From a virus (Duplodnaviria; Caudoviricetes): 64,000 nt of DNA. The notes beneath the pieces were generated by a model, which worked only from the letters and a program-made list of their open reading frames with translations, was not told where the DNA came from and searched no databases. The stretch lies in the IMG/VR virus record IMGVR_UViG_3300036801_000104, positions 911 to 64,910 of that record; one strand, given 5' to 3'. Shown here piece by piece: positions 4,451 to 53,053 of this stretch (the stretch's first letter is position 1; each line of letters opens with the position of its first letter). The position numbers were made by a program, and so were the translations under genes.

Positions 4451-4895
4451 TGGGTTCCCGCCCCCGCCAAATAATTGCGTTCCAATAGATACCGAATAGT
4501 ATGCCAGAGGGGAGCTGATCGGCGAGAATATGATCCCACGGCATCGGAGTATGGTCGAGGTATGCGCCGCTCCACGCGGCAGATAGCCCGCCGATCGCCA
4601 TTACGCCCAAGCAAAAAAGCTGTGGCATAAAGAGCAACAAACGAATCCGGCCGAGCCGGAACAGGGCGCCGATTAATGCCAAAATTGCCGCGCTGATCAT
4701 AATGGCAGCCACGAGACGGCCGCCATATCCATGCGAGCCCAGAGCCGAAAACACGATCTGCAACGACATAAGGTTGGTCGCGCCTCCCGCCGACGACGAA
4801 TGAAGCAGGAGTCCCGCCTGCGCAATGTGCATGACCGATACGGCCACGATATCGACTGATCCTCTCCGCGAAAATGGGCGAGGCACTAATTTCAT
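4437..4895 (-). CDS. Four-TM membrane protein
   Basis: Four hydrophobic segments. Confidence 0.6.
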   Translation of the reverse strand: MKLVPRPFSRRGSVDIVAVSVMHIAQAGLLLHSSSAGGATNLMSLQIVFSALGSHGYGGRLVAAIMISAAILALIGALFRLGRIRLLLFMPQLFCLGVMAIGGLSAAWSGAYLDHTPMPWDHILADQLPSGILFGIYWNAIIWRGREPNGEG

Positions 4896-4911
4896 CAGCC
4901 TTCGGAGCTCG

Positions 4912-5649
4912 CTATGCTTCCCGGAAAAGATTTGCGCCGATCGTCGCCCGCACCTGGGGATCGCTGAGTTTCCAGACCCGCGCGCTATAAACGAAATGAA
5001 TCATTCCGATTCCGGCACGTATCGCGAGGATCTGCGGGACAACCTGCGCCGATAGAGGGCCATTGCGCAGCACCAGCCAAATGGCCCCAATCGCGAGCAC
5101 GAGCGGAATAAACCCCCAACGCCACCCGGAAGCCTGACTAGACAAGCCCATGTCAGTCAGCCAGTGATTGAATGAGAAGACGCCGAATGAAAGTGCGTGA
5201 GTCCTCGGTCCCTCACCAAAGAAGGGCAGCAGGCCGATCGAGAATGCCGTGAACAGCACGCAGCCCAGCGCCCGCCAAAAGTGCGCCGTAGGACTACCGG
5301 GCCGGTGATAGAGGCACGATACGCCGAATATCTGCATCCCGAAGTGCCAAATGTTCCAGGCGAAGTAGATGCTGAACACCATCTGCCATGGCGCGAGGAG
5401 GCAGCCCGCCACTAGCCCGATCGGCAACGCGATGTGCATCCCCCATTCCCGCGAGACGATGCGGCGCAAGCCCGGCTTCGTCCACGCCAGGATCATCGGC
5501 GAGATGACATGGCCAGTTTCCAGGATCATGATCGTGATCGCCATGTACCAGATACCTGGACCCGGCACGAACAACATCAACGCAATGCCGATCGGCAGGC
5601 CGCTCAATAACCAGAACCCATCCCACCACGGATTGCGAACCCAAGACAT
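4912..5649 (-). CDS. Polytopic membrane protein with four spaced His motifs
   Basis: About 7-8 TMs; TGHV, WHFGMQ, NHW and IHF motifs. Confidence 0.65.
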   Translation of the reverse strand: MSWVRNPWWDGFWLLSGLPIGIALMLFVPGPGIWYMAITIMILETGHVISPMILAWTKPGLRRIVSREWGMHIALPIGLVAGCLLAPWQMVFSIYFAWNIWHFGMQIFGVSCLYHRPGSPTAHFWRALGCVLFTAFSIGLLPFFGEGPRTHALSFGVFSFNHWLTDMGLSSQASGWRWGFIPLVLAIGAIWLVLRNGPLSAQVVPQILAIRAGIGMIHFVYSARVWKLSDPQVRATIGANLFREA

Positions 5650-38709: not shown

Positions 38710-39744
38710 TCAGGCCGTGATGACGGCTTGCAAGAACGCGTTCGACATCGCCAGATTGCCGGCCCAGCCGATCAGCTTGACCATCGCGTCTTGGTTTACC
38801 GAGAAGCGGTCGGGATCGAGCGGGACCATGTCGCGCTCTTTGTGTGGGCGCAGAAAAATGTAATCGGTGTTGAGCAGGTACATATGGCTCGCAGGCGCGC
38901 CCTGACCCGAGGTCCATGTGTGACCAGCGCCGTCGATGCTGCTTCCCTGCCCAGCCGCGACGCCTTGGAAACCGCCGTCATAGACCACGTCGGCGTCCAT
39001 GAACTTGAGGCTGGCGAACCCGGCCATCGCCGTGCGATCCGAAGTAATGCGCTGGATTGCCTGGAGCGATTCCCAGTAATACCGGAAGTAGATATTGTCG
39101 GCGATAAAGAGGTCGGGCCGATCTGCCTGTCGCGATACCGCCAGCCATGCCCGGTTCATCATCGTCTGCATCGTCGCCGCGCCCGGTGTGAGAGCCGCGG
39201 TGGCAAACGACTGAACACTGTTTTGCCAAAACGCCCAGGTAGCGCGATTGATGCCGCCGACCGTGCCGCTAGTCGGCACATCCGCGACCAGCAATTGCAG
39301 GCCGCCGATCTGCTTGCCGCCGTCTGCCGTGCCGGTGCTGTAGCAGTCGGCGCTCAAGTTGTTCTCGAATGTGCGCTCGGCATTGCCGATCCGCGCCTCG
39401 AGGAGATCAATCATCTTCTCGCGACCGGCGTTTTGCAGCATTTCGAGGCCGGATATCGACACCGCAACCGCGGCTTGCGCTATCGGAAACTGCGCCGCAG
39501 TAAAGACATCGGACGGAGAGATGTTCAGGACATCATACCCGGAATATCTCTTGTAGGTGCCGTTTTCCGAGTATTCCAGCTCCTGGACGATCGCTTGACC
39601 GCCATCGAAGCTCTTGACCTTGCCCTTTTCCGAAAGCCGCGCGAGCAGGGCGTTATTCTTCGTGACGTTGTCGGCCAACTTGCGCGACCGGTTAAACAGA
39701 GTTGTAGTGGTGATTTCACCCCAATTGGTATTCGGGCTTGCCAT
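38710..39744 (-). CDS. Major capsid protein
   Basis: LADNVTKNNALL, IDLLEARI and YLLNTDY; follows the scaffold gene. Confidence 0.9.
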   Translation of the reverse strand: MASPNTNWGEITTTTLFNRSRKLADNVTKNNALLARLSEKGKVKSFDGGQAIVQELEYSENGTYKRYSGYDVLNISPSDVFTAAQFPIAQAAVAVSISGLEMLQNAGREKMIDLLEARIGNAERTFENNLSADCYSTGTADGGKQIGGLQLLVADVPTSGTVGGINRATWAFWQNSVQSFATAALTPGAATMQTMMNRAWLAVSRQADRPDLFIADNIYFRYYWESLQAIQRITSDRTAMAGFASLKFMDADVVYDGGFQGVAAGQGSSIDGAGHTWTSGQGAPASHMYLLNTDYIFLRPHKERDMVPLDPDRFSVNQDAMVKLIGWAGNLAMSNAFLQAVITA

Positions 39745-39836: not shown

Positions 39837-41015
39837 CTATGCGGCGTCGTACTCTGCCGTATTGGCTTCCAGTTCTTCCCGCAGCGACTTCGCCCGGCCG
39901 CGGATATCATTTGGCGACTGACCTGACCCCGGAGAGCCGGTGACGCTCGATGACGCCCGTTGAGCTTGTGCTGCTTTCGCTTTCCGGTCGGCTGCCGCTT
40001 TCTGCTTGGCCTGCGCCTCTGAGGCAGCAAGCAGCTTCGCGCGGGTCTCGCGGTTGGCGTATGCCGCCCTGTCATACAGGTCGGCCAGATCGATGGTTTT
40101 GCCTTGGGCTTGATCAAGCCGGGCCAAAGCCATCATGTCTTGTTCCAGTTCGGAGAAGTAGGGATGCGCCAGGTTACCGGCAGCATCTTTCTCCTGCGCG
40201 AACGTACCGATCTGCCGCTCGGCAGTCGAAAGGCGCTCGGTTTGCGTCGCGCGCTCGGTGTTGGTTTTCCACTCCTCAAGGGAGTTGATCTTCTGCAGCA
40301 ATTCCTGCGGAATCGCGGGAGCTGGCGGGGCCGCAGCCTCATTCGTCTGCCAGACTTGGCCTTGCAAGATGGTCGCGACCGCGACCGGGTCGACTCGGTA
40401 TTGCTGAATCATTCTGGCGACCAAGGTGGCTCCCTTGTCGTTTGGTCGCCCCATCTGCGCGTCCTGGAGCCCCTCCTGGAATCCGCGCTCCACCGAGGCC
40501 CATGCCTTCACGACATCCGATGCCGTCTGGTTGCGCTGCCGCAATACCTCCGCATAGGGTTTGAACACCTCTTCGGCGGCTCCGAACTGCTTCTCCAGCT
40601 CGGCCGCCCGCATCAGTTTTGGGGTAAACCCGGCCTCGATGGCCTTGTATCGGTCGACGACAGCCTGACGGTGCTCGGCGGGCAACTTGGCGACGAGATC
40701 CTTATCGGCCTGCGACCAGTGCGCGGGAACATCGACCTTCGGTTCCGTAATTGCCGGGGCTTCCAGATCGGCTTCGCCTTCTTCGGGCTCGGTCTCGGTC
40801 TCGGACGGCTCCTCTTCGGTCTCCTCGGGCTGCTCTGCGTCCTTGGGCAGGAACTTGCCGTCTGGGCCGCGCGGGCGCTCGCCTGATGGCGTCTCTGGCT
40901 TTTCTGGGGTATCGGTAGCCGCTTCCGGCTTTCCGCTCTGTACGGGCTCCGCCGCGGTTTCCGATGCGGTGACCGTCTCGGCCAGCAGATTGCGCAGCTC
41001 GGAGGGCTCAGCCAT
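39837..41015 (-). CDS. Capsid scaffolding protein
   Basis: Acidic N-terminus, RGPDGKF, PAHW, helical body, C-terminal SLREEL. Confidence 0.8.
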   Translation of the reverse strand: MAEPSELRNLLAETVTASETAAEPVQSGKPEAATDTPEKPETPSGERPRGPDGKFLPKDAEQPEETEEEPSETETEPEEGEADLEAPAITEPKVDVPAHWSQADKDLVAKLPAEHRQAVVDRYKAIEAGFTPKLMRAAELEKQFGAAEEVFKPYAEVLRQRNQTASDVVKAWASVERGFQEGLQDAQMGRPNDKGATLVARMIQQYRVDPVAVATILQGQVWQTNEAAAPPAPAIPQELLQKINSLEEWKTNTERATQTERLSTAERQIGTFAQEKDAAGNLAHPYFSELEQDMMALARLDQAQGKTIDLADLYDRAAYANRETRAKLLAASEAQAKQKAAADRKAKAAQAQRASSSVTGSPGSGQSPNDIRGRAKSLREELEANTAEYDAA

Positions 41016-41966: not shown

Positions 41967-42305
41967 CTAACTAGATCTCGCAAACGCCCGGACGACAGCC
42001 ATGATATCTTGCTTGGGAGACAGCAATTCACCGCATGTGTGGGTATGCCACAAAACCCGATCCGGCGGAATCGTTGGCTCAAGAGCAGGGACAACAGATC
42101 GCTCGATATCCTCTTTCGACCGTCTTTGCTGCTCGCTTAACATCGATTGAACATCTGCATGATATTCCGGAGGGGCATCGCAGGCGCCCGCTATAGTCCC
42201 CCTAAGATCCCGATTGGCCATCAGATACCAGATCAGTATTGAGTCGCCCCATGGCCTCATCAGGGTTGCGTCCCATAAATCGTGAACGGCTCGACTGTGT
42301 TGCAA
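41967..42305 (-). CDS. Hypothetical protein
   Basis: ORF in the operon; start uncertain. Confidence 0.45.
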   Translation of the reverse strand: MQHSRAVHDLWDATLMRPWGDSILIWYLMANRDLRGTIAGACDAPPEYHADVQSMLSEQQRRSKEDIERSVVPALEPTIPPDRVLWHTHTCGELLSPKQDIMAVVRAFARSS

Positions 42306-42886
42306 TTTGCCTTCGTGATGCCGGTCGGGCCGATGACGAGTTTATCGCCGCTAATCGCAAGATCGGTCGGCGCCGGTGCCCCAAATGTATAGGTGACCGG
42401 TTTCCCGTTCCCGCCTGTTATGCCCATCGTCATTATCACTCTGCCGGGAGCCCACGCACAATCGGCCATTACTCCTGTGACGCCAACCCGTAATGGAGCT
42501 ACCGAGATTTCGGCGCTTTTAGCGGGAGAGGTCCAGCTGTTGTTGGTAAAAAACCTGACTTCGTACTGCCCAGGTTGTGTCGGCACAACAAGGTGCACAG
42601 TCCCGGATGTAACGCCCGTCGCGGGAAAGCCGGTCGCCAGATCGGTCGAAAGCCACTTCCACGACAGCCGCCGGCTGGTCTGGGCAACCGCGCCAACAGC
42701 ATAAACCCCGAGCCAATCCCCCCGATTGCCTGGACCTCCGGTCACCGTGGCAGAGATTGCAGCGCCTGCCGGGACCGTCAGCGGACCTCCGCTAGGTGGG
42801 CCACTAGCAGTCACGGTCGGAGCGGCATGCGCCGAGTAGGCCCCCAGAGCGAGCGCAGCAATCGCCACACCGAGGGCTCTATTCAC
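42260..42886 (-). CDS. Secreted two-domain Ig protein; C-terminal cadherin-like domain ends at GTQP
   Basis: Signal ...SAHA; DWLGVY..PGQYEVRFF Ig; LAISG.KLV...FTIYGTQP. Confidence 0.7.
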   Translation of the reverse strand: MNRALGVAIAALALGAYSAHAAPTVTASGPPSGGPLTVPAGAAISATVTGGPGNRGDWLGVYAVGAVAQTSRRLSWKWLSTDLATGFPATGVTSGTVHLVVPTQPGQYEVRFFTNNSWTSPAKSAEISVAPLRVGVTGVMADCAWAPGRVIMTMGITGGNGKPVTYTFGAPAPTDLAISGDKLVIGPTGITKANCNTVEPFTIYGTQP

Positions 42887-43113
42887 TACGCACCCGTCTC
42901 CGGAACGCCATCAGTCTCGGCCGGATATTCGGGTAATTGTGGCAATACGCCATCCGTCATCAACGCCAACGCGAAAACAATGACCACATCCGGGCTGCTC
43001 ATCACCTGGAGCGCCTCCAAATATCGCCCGGCAGACACCGCGCGATGGTGATTTTTCGCCCACTCGACCAAGAAAGCGGCGTCTCTGCGGGCTCTTTTGT
43101 AATCCGTGATCAT
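42886..43113 (-). CDS. Hypothetical protein
   Basis: Coupled ORF. Confidence 0.5.
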   Translation of the reverse strand: MITDYKRARRDAAFLVEWAKNHHRAVSAGRYLEALQVMSSPDVVIVFALALMTDGVLPQLPEYPAETDGVPETGA

Positions 43114-43128
43114 GGGCCAGTGGTCCAG

Positions 43129-43473
43129 CTAAATGAAATCCTTCATCGCCCACATATGGCTTTCTTCAAGCGCCATTGCGGCCCGGCCGCGGGTTCCGCT
43201 ATTTCCCGGCATTTTCTGTAGCAGAGCGTCCAAATCCTCAAACGCATCCGTAATCTCATCCCGAAGCTTTAGCTGGTCGGGCACCAGCTTGCGCTCCTCG
43301 GGCCTGAACTTGGTCGCCGGGCGACGGCGGGGGACGAGGCGCGCTGCGGGGTTATCGTGGTGATCCATCGCGTGGCCATCATCAATTGCGCGTTCCTGGC
43401 GCTTGGCCGGAGTGGATGCCTCCTCCCGCGACGCCCGCGATGGGTGATCGTGTTTGTCCTGACTGGTGTTCAT
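43129..43473 (-). CDS. Acb2/Tad1-like helical hairpin protein (candidate nucleotide sponge)
   Basis: KFRPEERKL...LRDEI...RAAMALEESHMWAMK; AGGAG SD. Confidence 0.5.
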   Translation of the reverse strand: MNTSQDKHDHPSRASREEASTPAKRQERAIDDGHAMDHHDNPAARLVPRRRPATKFRPEERKLVPDQLKLRDEITDAFEDLDALLQKMPGNSGTRGRAAMALEESHMWAMKDFI

Positions 43474-43489
43474 CTTTTCTTCTCCTGGG

Positions 43490-44236
43490 TTAAACGAGTC
43501 CCTGCATCTCACGCGACTGCATGTGTGAGATTTTGGCTTGCTCAAGCTGCTCTTTGCCTTGCATCTCGCGGCCCCGCATCGCCAATTCCGCCGCAGCCTT
43601 GTCCTGCTCAGCTTGGAGCTTGTCGGCCGCGATCTTCTGCTGCGCCTGGACCTGCTGCATCTTAACGGCGTTGGCTTGCTGGTCGGTCTGTAGCTTGACC
43701 GCGCTGGCTTGCTGGTCCGTTTGCATCTTGCCTTGCGCTTCTTGCAATTGGGCCTGGATCTCCATCGGAGATTTGCCCCCGCCCTTTTGTGGCGGCGGCT
43801 GACCAGGCGACTGCAGCATGTGCTCCATCGCCGTCTCGAATGAATCCTCAAGCTGCCGCGATGTCGGAAAGGCCCGCACCCCAAACATGATCAATTCAGA
43901 GATGAGCGGCTTGAAGTCCGGATTCGACTGCGCCAGCGGCACCATTGCCTCCATAAACGGCGTAATCGCCTGGAGGAATTCGGTGCGCGATTGCTTTTCC
44001 GCCTGCTCGTCGGCCGCAACCGTCGAATCTGCCTCAATGTCGATCTTGTAGGACTTGGCCGCGTCCGTTTTGATCAACTCGCACGCAGCCATGAACTGCT
44101 TTTGCCGGCGCGTCATCTCCTGGTCGCGCATCTGCTTCAGCTGCAGCCACTGCATGAATGCCGGATTTGGCATCATCGCGGGCTGCTGGGGCGACATTTG
44201 CGGCCCAGGCTGGGGCATGCCGCGCAACTCGCTCAT
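43490..44236 (-). CDS. Portal protein, C-terminal part
   Basis: LIKTD..SYKIDIEADST..DEQAEKQSRTEFL, followed by a Q-rich coiled-coil barrel. Confidence 0.85.
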   Translation of the reverse strand: MSELRGMPQPGPQMSPQQPAMMPNPAFMQWLQLKQMRDQEMTRRQKQFMAACELIKTDAAKSYKIDIEADSTVAADEQAEKQSRTEFLQAITPFMEAMVPLAQSNPDFKPLISELIMFGVRAFPTSRQLEDSFETAMEHMLQSPGQPPPQKGGGKSPMEIQAQLQEAQGKMQTDQQASAVKLQTDQQANAVKMQQVQAQQKIAADKLQAEQDKAAAELAMRGREMQGKEQLEQAKISHMQSREMQGLV

Positions 44237-44442
44237 TGCGCTTCGCGAGCCTCTCTAAACAGGGTTGCGCGATCGGCGTCAGATAGGCCGTTAAGGGCGC
44301 CCTTTGCGTCCAATTTGGCCAACTCCGTCTCGGAATATAGGGGAGTACCGCGGCTGCGGAGATAATCAGCCCACGGCGACGATAGATCAGCCCTGCCACT
44401 CTTCCAGATAGCGGGATCGTATATCACGTGGGTCGTCTTCAT
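44233..44442 (-). CDS. 69-aa hypothetical protein inserted within the portal gene
   Basis: ATGA overlaps at both ends; AAGGAG SD. Confidence 0.6.
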   Translation of the reverse strand: MKTTHVIYDPAIWKSGRADLSSPWADYLRSRGTPLYSETELAKLDAKGALNGLSDADRATLFREAREAQ

Positions 44443-45992
44443 GCTGCTGTCGCTCCTTGCATTGCCGGATGCGGCACGACATTGCCCATCGGCTGCGGTT
44501 GCGGCGGCGGCGCCGGGATCATCATCTGCGGCGGCGGTGGCGGCAGCTCCGGCAACGGCTCAGGCAAGCCGGTCATTTCCATCAGCGTTTCCGCTGAGAA
44601 ATGCGCCGCGATCACGAAACCGCGCAGCCGCATCAAGTCCCGCGCAAACCGCGCCACCTGCTTCTGCGCCTTCGAGATGCGCCGCGTCGCAAACTGCGAT
44701 TTCAGCTGCTGCGCGCCTAACGTTTCGTTCGGATTGGTCTCACCCCGCAGAATGTCGGCCATTCCGGTGATCTGGTAGAGCGTCTGCAATACCTTATCGC
44801 GCGCTTCGTGCAGCCCGATCAGCACCTTTGCGATTTGCTCAATCGGCAACCAATGAATCATGTTCTGAAGGCCGCCCTTGTCCATGAAGGCCGCCCAATT
44901 CTCGATTGGAATCAGCTTGTTTTCCGAACTTTCGTCGACTAGCTGGGTGATCGTCGCCTTTTCGGACCCAGGATAGATGCCAGCGACCTTTAGCACGCTC
45001 TGTAATTTATCAATCCGCGCCGTCAGGATGTCGAGTTCAACCGCTTGATCCTGATATTCGGCAAAATCAGGGACCGGCGTAAGCGTCTCATTAGTGGTAG
45101 TGGCAGATAACGGCCGCGGGGACGGAAAAAACCCAGGAAGCCCAAGGGGATCGTCCTTCGTATCGCAGGGAGCGTCCTTGTATGACGTAGCGATCCATAT
45201 GACACGCTGCTTTTTGCCATCCCAGATTTCCCATACCTGCGCTTTTTTGAAGGCGTCGGCCTGGGGTCCATCAACGCCATCCTCGCCAACGCCCTTCGGT
45301 GAGTAATCCAAAGTTACCGCGTTGCCAATTTTGGCTCCAAACCGACCCTTCAATTCGTCGCGCGTCATGTAGGTCCGGTACGCCTTCCACCACACCTCTT
45401 TGTGGTTGCGCGCCGGGCTCTCGCGGTAGTCTTCCCAGAACACATAGCGCACCGGAGCGCGTTCGCTGCTTACGGGTCGAAAGGTCGGCCGGTCCCCCGT
45501 CTCTTCGTCCGGCTCGGCGTCGGGGTCTTCTTCAGGATCACCAAATTTTGCTTCGTAATATACACGGGCCACCCCTCGGCCGGGCAGGAGTCGATCCTCG
45601 ACGACAGCCTCCATAACTTCGCTGAACTCGTCGAGGTCATCTTCATACGATAGCGCTCTCTCGATAATTTCGGCCCCAATCCTTGCCACGTCGTCATTGT
45701 TCTTGTGTCTCCTCTCCACGTCTGGCTTGGGCGTCCGGCCATAGAGGATCGGCTTCAGCGTCTCGACGTTCGCCCATAAGATGTTGAACCGCGCGCCCTG
45801 CTTGCCGGTCAGCGCCCGCTCATCACGGTAGCGCTTGACGACCTTGCGGCCCCGCCTGATCCATAGCCGGTCCTCGCGCTCGGCCAGCCTGAGTTGCTGC
45901 AGCCAAAACCGCACGACATCGCCCGGCTCGTCCCCGATGTCGGCGCGCGTCTCGATCGCGCCAGTCGACCCGCCGTAGGTTTGTTCAGCCAT
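44439..45992 (-). CDS. Portal protein, N-terminal part
   Basis: FNILWANVETLKP, DRLLPGRG, VWEIWD, YQITGMADILRG and ETLGAQQLK. Confidence 0.9.
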   Translation of the reverse strand: MAEQTYGGSTGAIETRADIGDEPGDVVRFWLQQLRLAEREDRLWIRRGRKVVKRYRDERALTGKQGARFNILWANVETLKPILYGRTPKPDVERRHKNNDDVARIGAEIIERALSYEDDLDEFSEVMEAVVEDRLLPGRGVARVYYEAKFGDPEEDPDAEPDEETGDRPTFRPVSSERAPVRYVFWEDYRESPARNHKEVWWKAYRTYMTRDELKGRFGAKIGNAVTLDYSPKGVGEDGVDGPQADAFKKAQVWEIWDGKKQRVIWIATSYKDAPCDTKDDPLGLPGFFPSPRPLSATTTNETLTPVPDFAEYQDQAVELDILTARIDKLQSVLKVAGIYPGSEKATITQLVDESSENKLIPIENWAAFMDKGGLQNMIHWLPIEQIAKVLIGLHEARDKVLQTLYQITGMADILRGETNPNETLGAQQLKSQFATRRISKAQKQVARFARDLMRLRGFVIAAHFSAETLMEMTGLPEPLPELPPPPPQMMIPAPPPQPQPMGNVVPHPAMQGATAA

Positions 45993-46102
45993 TCACCGAT
46001 GCCATCCGATGCGCAAATCGGCACCCCCGATCATTATGTGCAGCGACCAATACCAATGATGATCGCGCGTGCGCCACCATCGGACCGGACCAAACCTGCC
46101 TT

Positions 46103-46153
46103 GCACATAAGACCAAGGGCTTGGAGCCGCACATAAGACCAAGGGCTTGGAGC
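46103..46153. repeat. Direct tandem duplication with 26-bp period (GCACATAAGACCAAGGGCTTGGAGC x2)
   Basis: Exact 25-mer at 46103 and 46129. Confidence 0.9.
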
Positions 46154-46165
46154 AGTCATTCGCCA

Positions 46166-48040
46166 CTAATGCAGGTTGAAGCAGCTGCTGGCGACATTCC
46201 ATCGGCCGACCAAAAAGCTCCCGGCAACGCTAGTCACACTATTGCAGATATTGCTGGTGGCGCCACCGGTCCCAATAAAGTTAATCGCGGCGGCCGGGGT
46301 TACGATATGTATTAGTCCGTTCTGATACCATTTACCGGAAGCGCCGCCAAGTAAGTTGGTTACGTCTGTGCCGCTACCAGTAATGGCAAAGGTAGGATGG
46401 TTCACGTCCGGCAACGATAGCGTCGCAGCATCCGCTACCGTCCCGGTCATGTTCTCTATGCCGACATTATTAGAGATAACAATTGATTCGTTGTTTGGCG
46501 TATAAGAAATCGGCATACCACCAGCATCAGCGACCGCGCTGAAGTCGTTGTTGGTGATTATAAAGTTTGGCCTTATCGGCGGCCCAACTCCGGTTGCGGT
46601 GTTCGTGAAGTGTAACGCAATGCCTACCGGTAACGCTGTGCCGGGGCAGGTGTTGAAGCGGTTCCCCGAAATGAGAAACCGCCCAATTGCGCTATTCGTA
46701 TTCGAGAGATTGATGTCTAGCGCTTCGGCTCCCGCCACCGGCGGCGCTCCCAAGTAGCCGCAAATCGACGAGTCCACCAACGAGAAGTCAAAGAACCCCC
46801 CAGTCCCGCTAGATTTCAGCTTCATAACCGGCATTGACTGCGCTGCACCAGCATGAACGGTAAACTGCACAAACGAAAGGTTGACGCAGCTTCCGGTAGA
46901 GCAATCAATCAGGACGCTTGTCTTGTTGAGGGTGGCCGCCGCCCAGCTGCCAGTGCTCTGCATGTCGATAACCCCGCCCAGGGGATCGGTCGGCTGTATA
47001 AGTAGATCATTTAACCCGGACTGATCGCCGAACACGCCCCTGAACAGGCCACCGGCCTCTTGCGCCACTCCACCTATCGCACCAGGCGCGATCTTGAACC
47101 CGATGTGGCAACCCTCGGGACCGTTTTGCGTGCCGTCGTAAGATATGCCGCCGTCATACAGCGCAAACCCGACCGAGTTAGCCGGGGCAGGCCCGGTGAT
47201 CGTGGGACAGATGATCAAGTTGTCGTTGTAAGTGTTGCCGGGAGACGCGGCTTGGACAGTAAACTTACCGTTGCTTATCCCTTCATCCGCGGGCGAATAA
47301 ATCGAATTGCGATTAAAAACGTTGCCGTCCGCTGTCGAGTCCTTCCCGCAGCAATCTACGGAATTGGCCCTCCCGCCAACCGCGATCCCGTCGAACGGCC
47401 TAATGATCGTATTGTATTCGACGCGCAGCCCGCTCTGGTATTTCCCTACCGGGGGACCGAACCGCATCGCCGCGCCAGCTGTGGGATTGGTCCCGTCCGT
47501 GGCGCTCATCTGTATACACAGCCCGACGATCGTCGCAGTCACCGCTGTGACATTCAGCATGTCGATGCCGGTGGCATTATTAATCAGCCCCCAGGGGCAA
47601 GCCCGCGACGAGGAACCGGTCGGATCTTGCGCCGTCCATCCCCCATAACGTAGCTGACCCTCAATCGAGATCGGCGCGGTGATGTTCAATGCCGCCGTGA
47701 TCAGGTACTTGTGGAGCGTGTCGAAATAGAGCGGCACGCCAGCCGCGGCGGCCCCATTGATCGCAGCCTGAACAGCCGCCGTATCATCGGTCCCGCCGTC
47801 GCCGACCGCGCCAAACACCTGTGGCGTTAGCCGCACGCCAGGGCTCAGATTGTTGAGGCATCCGGCCAGGGCGTTAAAGTTGTTCATTACCTGATTAGCA
47901 TCGGCAACCGTGCCGTTCTGCAATACCTCCGGTAGCGTACAACCCGTAACCTGTGCCCGCGTCTCGTAAAGGAATTCCCAAGAGATCGCGCCTACCACAG
48001 CCACCATCAGGGATGCGGCAAGCAGGGCGCGACGGATCAT
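46166..48040 (-). CDS. Tailspike-like beta-helix (pectate_lyase_3-type) protein with an N-terminal export signal
   Basis: MIRRALLAASLMVAVVGA; NGTVADANQVMNNFNAL; FGAVGDGGTDDTAAVQAAIN. Confidence 0.8.
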   Translation of the reverse strand: MIRRALLAASLMVAVVGAISWEFLYETRAQVTGCTLPEVLQNGTVADANQVMNNFNALAGCLNNLSPGVRLTPQVFGAVGDGGTDDTAAVQAAINGAAAAGVPLYFDTLHKYLITAALNITAPISIEGQLRYGGWTAQDPTGSSSRACPWGLINNATGIDMLNVTAVTATIVGLCIQMSATDGTNPTAGAAMRFGPPVGKYQSGLRVEYNTIIRPFDGIAVGGRANSVDCCGKDSTADGNVFNRNSIYSPADEGISNGKFTVQAASPGNTYNDNLIICPTITGPAPANSVGFALYDGGISYDGTQNGPEGCHIGFKIAPGAIGGVAQEAGGLFRGVFGDQSGLNDLLIQPTDPLGGVIDMQSTGSWAAATLNKTSVLIDCSTGSCVNLSFVQFTVHAGAAQSMPVMKLKSSGTGGFFDFSLVDSSICGYLGAPPVAGAEALDINLSNTNSAIGRFLISGNRFNTCPGTALPVGIALHFTNTATGVGPPIRPNFIITNNDFSAVADAGGMPISYTPNNESIVISNNVGIENMTGTVADAATLSLPDVNHPTFAITGSGTDVTNLLGGASGKWYQNGLIHIVTPAAAINFIGTGGATSNICNSVTSVAGSFLVGRWNVASSCFNLH

Positions 48041-48216
48041 TTTCCGAGGCGTTCAGCCTTGATCGCTTGGATGATGAACAGCACTCCCGCCGCATAAATC
48101 ATTAGCCTCCAATGCGGCCAGAAGGTAAAGGCGTAAACGCCGACGATCATGCACAAGCCAGCCAGCCCGCCATAGGTGGAGGGCTCTGCTAAGCGGGCGC
48201 TCAGCCATTTCATCAT
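48037..48216 (-). CDS. Two-TM holin-like small protein
   Basis: RLAEPSTYGGL motif plus two TMs. Confidence 0.55.
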   Translation of the reverse strand: MMKWLSARLAEPSTYGGLAGLCMIVGVYAFTFWPHWRLMIYAAGVLFIIQAIKAERLGK

Positions 48217-49253
48217 TTCAGCAGCGCGGCGATCCTGGTTCCGATCGGCGAGCCTAGCCCAGTACAAGGGTCCGGCCCAACCCTGGCTCTGAACTTCCCG
48301 TTGTTGCCCCTGGTGATGTCGTTGAAAGCCATATGATCGGCCCACAGCAGCGGGCCTATGCCCTCCGCCATCAGAAGCCCACGCTTCTTTCCACAAGCGG
48401 CGATGAGACCGGCATAAAAAGGAGAAACAAAACTCGTGCCGCCGAAGACCTCAACCTGACCATTCAGCACCACCTTTACGCCGGTTTCCGGGTCGGCGTT
48501 CGCCGCCAGATCCGGGACCATCCGGTTGCCATGCGGCGCCCCCGACATCCACATCGGCATAGGGAAGATATTCGAGAAGCCGCCGCCTCCCTCGCTCCAC
48601 GCGGTCTCGGCCCGAGACATGAATGTTGAGCCGGTCTTCCGCGTCCCGCCGCACGCGATCACGTGCGGGCAGCTGGCGGGCGAGTCGACATTAGCCCGAG
48701 GCGTGGCTGCAAGGAAATCCTTCGAGCCATTGTCCCCGGACGCGGCAAGCACAACCATGCCGAGACTCAGCGCGCGCTGCACCGCCCTTTCCATCGACCA
48801 GCAGGCGGCTTCCCTCGTTACATACTCGTTCGCGCCCCACGACCAAGCCAGCACGTCCATGCCATCCATCGCCGCCTGGCTAGTCACCGCCTCGATCGAA
48901 TCGTTGGCATTCGGCGCGTAGTAAACATGAATCTCAGCTGGCTTACCGGTAGCCACCCAGTATGATGCCGCCGCCGTCTGTATATCGAGCGCCACTTCGC
49001 CAGAGGCGGGGTCGGTCAAGTCTCCGCTGTTGGCGCCGCCATTCACCGAGTGGTCTACGATGGTCGGACGCGGCATCCCGATCATCCCGCAGAATTGATC
49101 GGTGTCGGTCATCCGAGACCCGCCACCCAACTCTCCGATCGCGATTACCCCGCCACCGTCGAGGCCAGTCGGCCAATCATAGGCGCGGGCGAGCGCATCT
49201 ATCATCCACGGGCTCGCCGAGACGCTCGGCGTTCTGATGTAGCTTCTCGGCAT
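48213..49253 (-). CDS. S53 (sedolisin/kumamolisin) peptidase, catalytic domain only
   Basis: GEVALD, AASGDNG, VPDLAANADP, GGTS and DPCTGLGSP. Confidence 0.9.
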   Translation of the reverse strand: MPRSYIRTPSVSASPWMIDALARAYDWPTGLDGGGVIAIGELGGGSRMTDTDQFCGMIGMPRPTIVDHSVNGGANSGDLTDPASGEVALDIQTAAASYWVATGKPAEIHVYYAPNANDSIEAVTSQAAMDGMDVLAWSWGANEYVTREAACWSMERAVQRALSLGMVVLAASGDNGSKDFLAATPRANVDSPASCPHVIACGGTRKTGSTFMSRAETAWSEGGGGFSNIFPMPMWMSGAPHGNRMVPDLAANADPETGVKVVLNGQVEVFGGTSFVSPFYAGLIAACGKKRGLLMAEGIGPLLWADHMAFNDITRGNNGKFRARVGPDPCTGLGSPIGTRIAALLK

Positions 49254-51088: not shown

Positions 51089-51189
51089 TCAATCCGCTCG
51101 CCATGGTCGCCATCGCCGTCTTCGCCCTTGCCGTCGCCGTGGCGCAATCGCTTATGATCGGCTGGCCGCAACGCTTGCTTGGTCTCTAA
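51085..51189 (+). CDS. 34-aa single-TM peptide
   Basis: Starts at AAAGGAACAGAAATG. Confidence 0.5.
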   Translation: MINPLAMVAIAVFALAVAVAQSLMIGWPQRLLGL

Positions 51190-52670
51190 ACCCGCTCCCG
51201 ATGCGCCGAGTACCCCCGCGGCCGAGCCTGCTCCCATACCTCGTCCATCGTCATCTCGCTGAGCCCCCGCATCGGCTCCGACGCTTTCGGCACCTCGCCC
51301 GCGATCAGGTCATCAAGCATGCGGCCCACTAGGCTTAGCACGTCCACCTGATCGTCATTCTTGCCTGCCGGGAATCGCAGCAGCTCCGATACTAAGTCCG
51401 TCGCCCAGGGCGCGCGCCTCGGAAGATAGACCTTCCCCATCGCCATCCGACCGCGGATCGATTGCGCCTTCGTCGCCTTGTTCGTCGCCGAGCTGAATTG
51501 CTTGCGATAGCAAAAGAGCAGCCGACGCTCAATCTGCCGCTTCAGTAGGAACGGGCCGACGCTCTTCTCGATTTGCGCGTTCTCCTCGGCCCACATTATA
51601 GGCCGCCACAGCTCCATCAGGTCGAGAGCAGCTTCCACCCAAACGTCAGATGCGGCTTGGTCTCGCCAGATGTCCAAGATGTAGATATCGTCCGAAGGGT
51701 CCACCCCAATGATGCCATGGACGGTATAATCGCCGCCTGCCGCGGTGACAGCGTAATCACTTGCTCCATACACCACGAGATGCTCTCGGGGCGGGGCTGC
51801 GTCATACCAGCGTATCCATTCGTGTTTGAAATAGTCGCCGCTCTCCGGTGTCGGCTCTTGCTGATAGAGCGCCGACCAATTGCGCACGTCGCGCTTGGCC
51901 TCAGCGAACATCTCCGGCCGAAACCACTCGGGCCACAGCGGAGCCCCTACAGCGCGTCCAAGCGGGTCCCCTATCCTAGCCTCGGCCGGGAGCGACAAGA
52001 CCTCCCACGCCTCGCCCCCGGTGTCCTGCTCCGCGATTAAGCGCCCGGCAAGGTCGTCCTCATGCCAGCGCGTCATGATAAGCACGATCCGCCCACCGGG
52101 CTTGAGGCGCGGCCAGAAGTCCGACCGGTACCAGTCCCATATACGATCGCGGATCGTTTGGCTGTCTGCCTCAGCCCGGCCCTTTACAGGATCATCGATG
52201 ATACCCAGATCGGCCCGTCGACCGGTGACGCTTGCGTCGACCCCCACAGCGTAATACTCACCGCCACGCTCCGTCTCCCATCGACCCGCCGCAGCGCTGT
52301 CTCCCGACAAACCAAAGCCAAACACGCGCCTGAAATCGGTCGAACCGACAAGATTTCTGACCCTTCGGCCAAACCGCTCGGCGAGTTCCCCGGAGTGGCT
52401 AGCCCCGATGACAGACCGCGCAGCATTACGCCCAAGGAACCAAGGCGGGAACAGGATTGATGCATATGTGCTCTTCGCGCTCCCCGGCGGCATGAAGATC
52501 ATTAACCGGGAGATCTCGCCGGCCTCGAGGGCCTCAAGGCGCCCGATCAGCAGCCGATGGTGCCGCGCCGGCTGGATATCAGGTGACGCTAACTCGATGA
52601 ACTTGAGGAGGCTCGCCTCCGCATCGAGCCGCAGCAGCAGCTCTTGCGCGACATCCTCAGCTGTTAGCAT
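51186..52670 (-). CDS. terL: Terminase large subunit
   Basis: MPPGSAKST Walker A, IIDDP Walker B, MTRWHEDDL, YQQEP and DDQVD. Confidence 0.95.
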   Translation of the reverse strand: MLTAEDVAQELLLRLDAEASLLKFIELASPDIQPARHHRLLIGRLEALEAGEISRLMIFMPPGSAKSTYASILFPPWFLGRNAARSVIGASHSGELAERFGRRVRNLVGSTDFRRVFGFGLSGDSAAAGRWETERGGEYYAVGVDASVTGRRADLGIIDDPVKGRAEADSQTIRDRIWDWYRSDFWPRLKPGGRIVLIMTRWHEDDLAGRLIAEQDTGGEAWEVLSLPAEARIGDPLGRAVGAPLWPEWFRPEMFAEAKRDVRNWSALYQQEPTPESGDYFKHEWIRWYDAAPPREHLVVYGASDYAVTAAGGDYTVHGIIGVDPSDDIYILDIWRDQAASDVWVEAALDLMELWRPIMWAEENAQIEKSVGPFLLKRQIERRLLFCYRKQFSSATNKATKAQSIRGRMAMGKVYLPRRAPWATDLVSELLRFPAGKNDDQVDVLSLVGRMLDDLIAGEVPKASEPMRGLSEMTMDEVWEQARPRGYSAHRERV

Positions 52671-53053
52671 CCCACAGGCGGTGTAGGCATCGGCATCCAA
52701 TGTGTGGGGCGACGCGCGCTATACTGATTGTCTCGCCACGGCCATGTGCCAGCCTCTTGGTAATAGGACACTATGAAAATGTCTTCGTTGTCGGCGTCCC
52801 ACACCAAGATAACAGTGCCGTCTTTTGGCGCCGACGCGATCGATGACCACTGCGTCATCTGCCCCGGACATCCCGTTCTATGCTCGTAGCCAGGATAAGA
52901 CATTTCCTCCAGCTCGTCCTTGACCTCACACCAAAAGCAGGTGCCGCGTTCCGTGGCCTCTGTCTTGCCGTGTAAGGCGCATACAATGATCGTGGGGGTA
53001 TCGGCGCGGGGAGCGTAATCGCGAGAGGGCGGCAATTCAGCTTTTAGCGTCAT
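52664..53053 (-). CDS. Protein with a C-terminal DUF551 domain
   Basis: WSSIASAPKDGT...PTHWMPMP. Confidence 0.65.
   Translation of the reverse strand: MTLKAELPPSRDYAPRADTPTIIVCALHGKTEATERGTCFWCEVKDELEEMSYPGYEHRTGCPGQMTQWSSIASAPKDGTVILVWDADNEDIFIVSYYQEAGTWPWRDNQYSARRPTHWMPMPTPPVGC

Follow-up and report, generated by a model that had tools for sequence, protein, structure and literature searches.

The portal protein, which forms the ring by which DNA passes into and out of the capsid, is in a tailed soil phage (Duplodnaviria; Caudoviricetes) most probably made as two separately translated chains that are cut in a disordered linker, and the seam between the genes for these chains most probably functions as a cargo slot whose occupant, in this phage, is a gene for a 69-amino-acid (69-aa) protein. 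The DNA analyzed, referred to here as the window, was a stretch of 64,000 nucleotides (nt) covering positions 911 to 64,910 of IMG/VR virus record IMGVR_UViG_3300036801_000104. In the direction of transcription, the open reading frames (ORFs) in question encode a portal N-half, the 69-aa protein, and a portal C-half (Table 1).

Organization of the portal locus

At the first junction, the stop codon of the N-half (TGA, 44441-44439) overlapped the ATG of the 69-aa gene (44442-44440); at the second, the stop codon of the 69-aa gene (44235-44233) overlapped the ATG of the C-half (44236-44234), so that each junction consisted of an ATGA overlap. The start coordinates of the three ORFs were 2, 0, and 1 modulo 3, and the ORFs therefore occupied three different frames, with 207 nt between the separate frames of the N-half and the C-half. 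A Pro/Gln-rich tail of ∼40 residues formed the end of the N-half and was resembled by a Pro/Gln-rich stretch of ∼26 residues at the start of the C-half. Both of these segments, the tails of N-halves and the heads of C-halves, varied among relatives. The motif YKIDIEADST was located at residues 63 to 72 of the C-half. An earlier note on this DNA had reported these ORF lengths, frames, overlaps, linkers, and motif, and its description was correct in every detail. A 14-nt direct repeat around the insert corresponded to the similar peptide in the N-half tail and C-half head, and neither terminal repeats nor target-site repeats were found around the insert.

Portal identity and predicted position of the cut

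Both halves were matched by PHROG 12082 (portal protein, profile length of 715). Residues 22 to 476 of the N-half aligned to positions 16 to 473 of the profile (E = 3.9e-158), and residues 34 to 227 of the C-half aligned to positions 518 to 710 (E = 1.4e-28). Adjacent parts of the same profile were likewise covered by the two halves of a related IMG/VR locus, L027, and of Bradyrhizobium phage ppBjS10J-1 (positions 5 to 500 and 500 to 695 for the latter). Judged from these profile matches, the two halves belong to one portal family and represent adjacent parts of it.

Alignment with unsplit homologues had been proposed as a check in the earlier note; the fused portal of locus L031 spanned both halves and had a linker at the cut site. 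This protein was 54% identical to the N-half and 36% identical to the C-half; residues 13 to 478 of the N-half aligned to its residues 11 to 492, and residues 44 to 218 of the C-half aligned to its residues 526 to 706. An AlphaFold model was made of the fused L031 portal (125-row alignment), not of the separate halves from the window, and had a mean predicted local distance difference test (pLDDT) score of 85.6 and a predicted template modeling (TM) score of 0.80. In a Foldseek search, the top matches of this model were solved podophage portals, all with a probability of 1.00 and with E values from 9e-13 to 1e-6. The portals sharing this fold were those of Pan3 (9vyf; E = 9e-13), Pa223 (9nwm), N4 (9yf8 and 9lbz), SU10 (7z44), VP1, T7 (gp8, 6qwp), and P22 (gp1, 9jg6).

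The first part of the model contained long stem helices and a clip region (a helix at residues 323 to 347, strands and short helices, and a helix at residues 398 to 423), followed by a loop. A 40-residue helix (residues 439 to 478) preceded a coil at residues 491 to 515, which had a pLDDT of 56 to 58, and a further helix at residues 516 to 540. A short strand at residues 547 to 551 corresponded to the RIDIEADS motif, and three helices extended from there to residue 624; this strand and the helices following it lay inside the same compact high-confidence fold. The model ended with a low-confidence gap and a 78-residue terminal helix. Because the halves aligned to residues 11 to 492 and 526 to 706, the cut is predicted to fall within the disordered linker, leaving the wing helix on the N-half and the last wing strand, the crown helices, and the barrel-like helix on the C-half. 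The names of the domains at the cut follow from the order of the secondary-structure elements and from the usual portal topology. Fused homologues carried a low-complexity linker at the cut site, of ∼35 residues in L031 and ∼130 residues in L033, and the strand motif (YKIDIEADS) was nearly invariant in fused portals. The long C-terminal helix resembled a P22-type barrel, as named in the list of P22 portal domains in an excerpt of PMC9320234.

A separate observation concerned the peptide M-M-G-H-N-G-G-P-P-M, which was conserved within the low-complexity linker of the fused portal of L033 (L033:3983-6730) and of the split N-half tails of L008, L012 to L014, and L024 to L028 and was not present in the window. 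This peptide is possibly a functional short linear motif.

The split is a trait of a clade

The N-half was matched by 51 of 50,697 phage records, all at less than 60% identity, and single portal ORFs of 663 and 774 aa were present in Myxococcus phage Mx8 and Brucella phage Pr, respectively. A scan of IMG/VR detected 33 related loci, comprising 20 split loci, 4 fused loci, and 9 loci ending before a C-half was visible. Both parts were seen directly in 22 loci (18 split and 4 fused), and the other two split loci were L021 and L022, in which the C-half was found 4,471 nt downstream. All of the fused loci were distant from the window (54% identity for L031 and 39 to 40% for L033, L034, and L035). 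In the split loci, the C-half invariably followed the N-half on the same strand, with as much as 4.5 kb of cargo intervening. As the same N/C split recurred in 20 of the 33 related contigs, it was not due to chance or to a local accident but was a trait of the clade.

A quick maximum-likelihood tree of the N-domain (LG+G4; 114 rows) was constructed, leaving out P0088 and P0100, whose tails look truncated, P0101 to P0153, and redundant loci. The 15-row clade of the window consisted entirely of split forms (Shimodaira-Hasegawa-like approximate likelihood ratio test [SH-aLRT] support, 99) and was nested among fused forms. The split portal of ppBjS10J-1 was sister to the fused Brucella phage portal (SH-aLRT, 99), and its split therefore arose independently. 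Four further representatives in the tree were putative N-only forms, as judged without DNA context. A difference in the break point between subclades was considered and dropped; N-half tails end in the same pattern, making a common break point more likely.

Members of the portal family were also numerous in a library of 1.84 billion proteins, in which 3,647 were detected (E ≤ 1e-3). Among the best 150 of these members, the C-domain was in the same chain in 142 and was not in 8. A search for stand-alone C-halves, restricted to proteins of 136 to 434 aa, identified 143 clusters (E ≤ 1e-5) with a median length of 251 aa. The strand motif was present in 104 of the 120 stand-alone C-halves listed, at a median position of 64, compared to 63 in the window. 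Wherever a source gave a name to these C-halves, they were termed “hypothetical.”

In ppBjS10J-1, a 522-aa N-half ORF had a stop codon overlapping (GTGA) a 236-aa ORF in another frame. The host of this phage, Bradyrhizobium japonicum S10J, spontaneously releases short-tailed, SYBR gold-stained particles, according to a 2023 mBio report on soybean Bradyrhizobium (PMC10127595), and the word “portal” did not occur in the main text of that report. These particles support the formation of particles, not infectivity, by a phage with a portal split in the same linker, the split being independent of that in the window. In the GenBank record of this phage (OP596615.1; L001, locus 4509-5219), both portal halves are annotated as “hypothetical protein,” and the C-half coding sequence is assigned an internal ATG as its start (173 aa), although its frame stays open back to the GTG that overlaps the N-half stop codon (236 aa).

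Selection acting on the two halves

Ratios of nonsynonymous to synonymous substitution rates (dN/dS) were determined for each half by the method of Nei and Gojobori. The values for the N-half and C-half, respectively, were 0.043 and 0.057 for L010 versus L015, 0.067 and 0.037 for L024 versus L027, and 0.058 and 0.164 for the window versus L005. Both halves were under purifying selection, with dN/dS values of 0.04 to 0.16 in these unsaturated pairs. The clade-wide occurrence of the split and the selection on both halves upheld the view in the earlier note that the split is natural and not the product of a single sequencing error.

The seam is variable in length and content

The distance from the N-half stop codon to the C-half start codon varied from −4 nt in L027, L028, and ppBjS10J-1 up to 4,471 nt, with intermediate lengths of 121, 250, 390, 927, 1,124, 1,447, 1,548, 1,579, 2,160, and 2,250 nt. 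At least 12 different seam states were observed among 22 split loci. The halves of L027 and L028 abutted by an ATGA overlap and were still in different frames without any insert. The seam of seven loci contained an 85-aa gene joined to each half by an ATGA overlap, while other seams contained sets of two to four small genes or encoded large proteins of 405 to 680 aa. All ORFs within the slot were on the portal strand and tiled every insert, with overlaps of 1 to 4 nt. The 569-aa seam protein of L013 had a match to the ADP-ribosyltransferase (ART)-like domain ART-PolyVal (PF18760; E = 1.4e-14; 55.4 bits versus a cut-off of 31.2), and the PF18760 matches of seam proteins from L014 and L025 were weak and under the cut-off.

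The borders of the exchanged segments were sharp. L024 and L027 were 92% identical in DNA sequence up to the PPPVP codons and again from the C-half ATG, and between these borders they contained 2,327 and 16 nt, respectively. Homology between the window and L005 (81% for the N-half and 75% for the C-half) stopped at 44455 and resumed at 44196. A short contig from another soil run, a single low-depth contig, matched 44114-44236 and diverged exactly at the C-half start codon. These comparisons identified the seam as the most fluid spot of the locus. Accordingly, the suggestion in the earlier note that the portal had been split by the inserted mini-gene did not hold, since the halves of L027, L028, and ppBjS10J-1 abut with nothing between them and other relatives carry different genes. 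The same note had described a passenger locked into an essential locus; the passenger was confirmed by the existence of two homologues (56 to 67% identity), and the locking was contradicted by L024 and L027, which differ by a 2.3-kb cassette.

The 69-aa protein

A search of 5.8 billion clusters produced both homologues of the 69-aa protein, one of 74 aa (67% identity) and one of 80 aa (56% identity), and 43 positions, mostly in the C-terminal half, were invariant among these sequences. The protein had no match in Pfam, PHROGs, or NCBIfam, and a PF18760 domain was not found in it. No homologue was detected in the 50,697 phage records, in the 33 related loci, or within longer proteins, and scans of genome, viral, and metagenome contigs with an alignment of the three sequences found no contexts for the homologues. 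An AlphaFold model had a pLDDT of 63 (low confidence) and contained four short helices; in the ESM Atlas there was no usable feature match, and all structure rows had TM scores of <0.5. The GC content at third codon positions was 0.61 in the 69-aa gene versus 0.71 and 0.78 in the flanking halves, which, for a gene of only 70 codons, is a weak hint of a foreign origin. A consensus scan of 43300-46300, covering sigma-70-type signals only, found no promoter-like or terminator-like sites flanking the 69-aa gene; a single promoter-like site was situated inside the N-half, no more than in shuffled sequences.

Overall, the 69-aa gene is a real passenger and is a rare one among many alternative occupants of the seam. 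It cannot be required for a split portal, because there are relatives without it. By analogy with the ART-type cargo of relatives, the 69-aa protein might be a virion-associated or host-directed accessory factor, a tentative assignment with somewhat worse than even prospects.

A two-chain portal and alternative explanations

A two-chain portal, as put forward in the earlier note, was the most economical reading of these results. In this model, the N-half and C-half would come together non-covalently within each of the twelve subunits of the portal, and the stop-start overlaps would keep synthesis of both chains coupled within the late head operon. The linker, which is hypervariable and rich in Pro, Gln, Gly, and Met and is also present in single-chain relatives, would make a seam that tolerates any sequence and which, for that reason, would have become a cargo slot. 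Same-strand accessory genes would be swapped by recombination between the conserved N-half end and the conserved C-half start, and the 69-aa gene, using its own Shine-Dalgarno sequence, would be a late gene whose product appears roughly when the portal is made.

Prediction of the heterodimer, another check proposed in the earlier note, was performed with alignments of 75 rows for the N-half and 71 rows for the C-half. The interface score (interaction prediction score from aligned errors [ipSAE]) was 0.55 (0.54, 0.55, and 0.55 in individual runs) versus 0.00 for the best control. At least 55% of contacts agreed between runs, and the partner pLDDT was at least 62. Of 80 solved complexes, 58 reached the mark used for this score, as did 2 of 110 mismatched pairs; scores of 0.60 or lower accounted for 7 of the 80 and for both mismatches. 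The prediction provided weak support, and, as the two chains are parts of a known fold, the pass may reflect likeness to solved portals.

Several findings weigh against a two-chain portal with a cargo slot. The case for two chains comes here from gene sequences. In a soil run containing 96% of the sampled words, contigs matched 45912-46100 only and not the seam (44200-44460), no RNA run was listed as a match, and the architecture of this contig is vouched for by its relatives only; at this place, the 69-aa gene occurs in this contig only. The split in ppBjS10J-1 is known from a single record, in which a base-calling error is possible. The ATG of the C-half is preceded by a weak Shine-Dalgarno sequence, GAGAGG, 13 nt upstream. 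Searches of Pfam and NCBIfam gave no name for either half, and sequence searches of the PDB with either half returned low-complexity noise only, similarity to solved portals being undetectable; portal identity thus rests on PHROGs and on the modeled fold of a fused homologue with 54% identity. Finally, deeper comparisons had the C-half evolving faster than the N-half, with dN/dS values of 0.24 to 0.43 and saturated dS, leaving room for some relaxation or a changed role of the C-half.

The faster evolution of the C-half in distant comparisons, together with a heterodimer prediction amounting to no more than a weak pass, could indicate that the N-half alone is a short portal, consisting of stem, clip, and wing, and that the 248-aa protein is an independent head or ejection protein in its old place. 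Barrel-less short portals were indeed among the structural matches, such as T7-type chains of ∼470 to 530 residues. This explanation is improbable, however, as the C-half has retained the YKIDIEADS strand motif, which in the fused model is part of one compact high-confidence fold with the helices that follow it. The strict synteny of the C-half, maintained behind the longest cargo, and its dN/dS values of 0.04 to 0.06 in close pairs are further arguments for a portal function.

The position of the 69-aa gene exactly between the halves, with which its product would be made, could instead point to a factor dedicated to portal assembly, joining or chaperoning the two halves. The nearest structure row in the Atlas was auto-labelled “putative chaperone,” with a TM score of 0.41 to 0.46 that was under any bar. 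Given that relatives have the same split with an empty seam or with unrelated genes and that the 33 related loci lack a 69-aa homologue, such a role is very unlikely.

Restoration of a single chain by RNA splicing, by ribosomal bypass or frameshifting, or by protein trans-splicing was likewise judged to be very unlikely. Where the halves abut, in L027 and L028 (ATGA) and in ppBjS10J-1 (GTGA), one −1 shift would suffice to bring them into the same frame, and the related Brucella phage Pr has annotated introns and inteins in its terminase gene. In the window, however, such a mechanism would need to pass over two changes of frame and a 207-nt gene that has its own Shine-Dalgarno sequence, and in relatives over up to 4.5 kb of genes; the halves stay in different frames where nothing is inserted. 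A search of 43000-46500 against Rfam (E ≤ 1) detected no intron, the best match being isrG at 14.1 bits versus a threshold of 100, and a Pfam search that included the N-half tail and C-half head found no intein or endonuclease domain. Splicing and a defective phage had both been named in the earlier note as outcomes that would overturn its reading. The latter explanation, in which decay of the phage, or else an artefact of assembly or sequencing, hides a real portal made from one ORF, is hardly credible even for a metagenome assembly whose seam was not reached by contigs of the best-matching read run: the same architecture was present in 20 independent IMG/VR contigs and 143 C-half clusters from several data sources, purifying selection acts on both halves, the inserted ORF is conserved, the ATGA junctions are clean, and the 64,910-base record has a CheckV completeness of 100% with intact large terminase (TerL) and capsid genes. 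The genome as a whole suggested no decayed element.

Comparison with known systems

Solved podophage portals are made of one polypeptide, whereas the portal described here is cut after the predicted wing helix and encoded by two genes that differ in frame and are separated by a third gene. As with single-chain podophage portals, the locus lies in the head module between the terminase and the scaffold and capsid genes. Searches of full-text literature found no published description of a portal encoded by two genes; one paper was rejected as a candidate because “split” referred there to samples and not to a gene.

The product of the nrdA gene of Aeromonas phage Aeh1 is said to be assembled from two chains. 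The likeness to the portal locus lies in an essential phage gene in two ORFs with another gene between them. In nrdA, the split was caused by the homing-endonuclease gene mobE, according to an excerpt of PMC3045599, whereas the window insert contained no homing endonuclease or mobility gene. The nrdA case also involves one selfish element, in contrast to the many alternative cargoes of the portal seam and the existence of the split without an insert in relatives.

Variable non-essential genes also occur within the structural operons of lambda- and HK97-type phages, as morons or accessory-gene hot spots in late operons, and are present in some close relatives and absent from others. The 69-aa gene resembles a moron in being absent from all 33 related loci, with other genes in the same place. 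It differs in being joined by stop-start overlaps, without a flanking promoter- or terminator-like site, and in that the hot spot falls within a region that forms a single coding sequence elsewhere among phages. Iyer et al. reportedly described, in 2017, phage polyvalent proteins as well as head effectors that carry ART-PolyVal domains and are linked to the portal or to MuF. Relatives of the window likewise encode effector-like ART-PolyVal proteins next to the portal, but as separate genes between the portal halves and not as domains fused to a head protein.

Portals were composed of single-chain subunits in every structure returned by the fold search. A natural and widespread two-chain portal would show where this fold can be cut and that the crown/barrel module can be supplied in trans, which would be of use in dissecting the role of this module in packaging, genome retention, and ejection. 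The seam would be a natural insertion site for late-expressed cargo, including ADP-ribosyltransferase-like proteins, and hence a place to seek new host-directed phage effectors; it is also a candidate safe insertion site for the engineering of soil (Bradyrhizobium-type) phages. An annotation gap was also evident, comprising “hypothetical” C-halves, two “hypothetical” halves in ppBjS10J-1, and the lack of a Pfam or NCBIfam name for either half.

Genome context

The portal region was located in a head-morphogenesis module, with several small ORFs before a scaffold-sized ORF. The tail-spike and subtilase genes (46166-49253) were situated between the large terminase and portal genes, an unusual place for a tail spike; in ppBjS10J-1 and Mx8, the terminase directly adjoins the portal. 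A second variable spot was found just downstream of the C-half (42260-43113), where the window had ORFs of 75 and 208 aa without a known family and its closest relative, L005, had only ∼240 nt separating the C-half from the next gene that both share. A scan of genome contigs with the N-half produced only five distant matches, to Priestia/Bacillus prophages at 25% identity, and identified no host.

Table 1. Coordinates of the portal ORFs, their junctions, and neighboring genes in the window
Feature	Coordinates	Strand	Comment
Portal N-half gene, 517 aa	44439..45992	(-)	Stem, clip, and most of wing (predicted); PHROG 12082 match
N-half tail, ~residues 477-517, upstream part of disordered linker	44442..44564	(-)	PHROG match ends at residue 476
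AAGGAG Shine-Dalgarno sequence, 10 nt upstream of ATG of 69-aa gene	44453..44458	(-)	Read from sequence
ATGA overlap, N-half stop/69-aa gene start	44439..44442	(-)	
69-aa cargo gene in seam	44233..44442	(-)	Predicted mostly helical; without known family
ATGA overlap, 69-aa gene stop/C-half start	44233..44236	(-)	
C-half head, ~residues 1-26, downstream part of disordered linker	44159..44236	(-)	PHROG match begins at residue 34
Portal C-half gene, 248 aa	43490..44236	(-)	Helix, YKIDIEADS strand, crown-like helices, and long barrel-like C-terminal helix (predicted)
Major head protein, intact	38710-39744	Same as portal	
Scaffold-sized ORF	39837-41015	Same as portal	
Pectate-lyase-like tail-spike gene, 624 aa	46166-48040	Same as portal	
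Subtilase-like (Peptidase_S8) gene, 346 aa	48213-49253	Same as portal	
Large terminase TerL, intact	51186-52700	Same as portal	

Recurrent peptides in the seams of relatives

The 4.5-kb seam of L021 and L022 contained a gene for a 591-aa ART-like protein followed by at least four same-strand ORFs of 117, 64, 108, and 239 aa (L022:7521-9470), the last of which had hydrophobic ends. Large seam proteins contained a nine-residue peptide, approximately L-I-P-V-D-H-D-P-F, twice at the N terminus and once near the C terminus. Loci with this type of peptide were L013:5732-7441, L022:5749-7524, L024:5961-8003, L025:2627-3967, and L008:5704-5886, and the 60-aa ORF of L008 consisted of little beyond three copies of it. 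The strict pattern was not found elsewhere in a scan of 37 loci and the window. The peptide might mark a junction or act as a signal for cutting or loading.

An additional tail of ∼24 residues (…PDGRHYVPDPxRPGK[FY]LMVA) was present at the end of the N-half in L008, L013, L024, and L025 and in P0004 and P0005. This tail occurred exactly in the loci with large motif-flanked cargo, replaced the short ending seen in L027, and was part of the swapped cassette and related to the seam peptide.

An unlikely, though not negligible, extension of the cargo-slot model is that the seam acts as a loading dock, where seam-encoded proteins would be synthesized next to the portal as it forms, captured by it, packaged at its vertex, and injected along with the DNA. 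Hints of this in relatives are the repeated peptide of the large seam proteins, its restriction to the seam, and the related N-half tail. The position of a gene inside the portal gene would then specify delivery of its product, and the 69-aa protein would be a minimal cargo. The invariant N-terminal sequence of this protein, V-I-Y-D-P-A-I-W, had only a loose likeness to the seam peptide.

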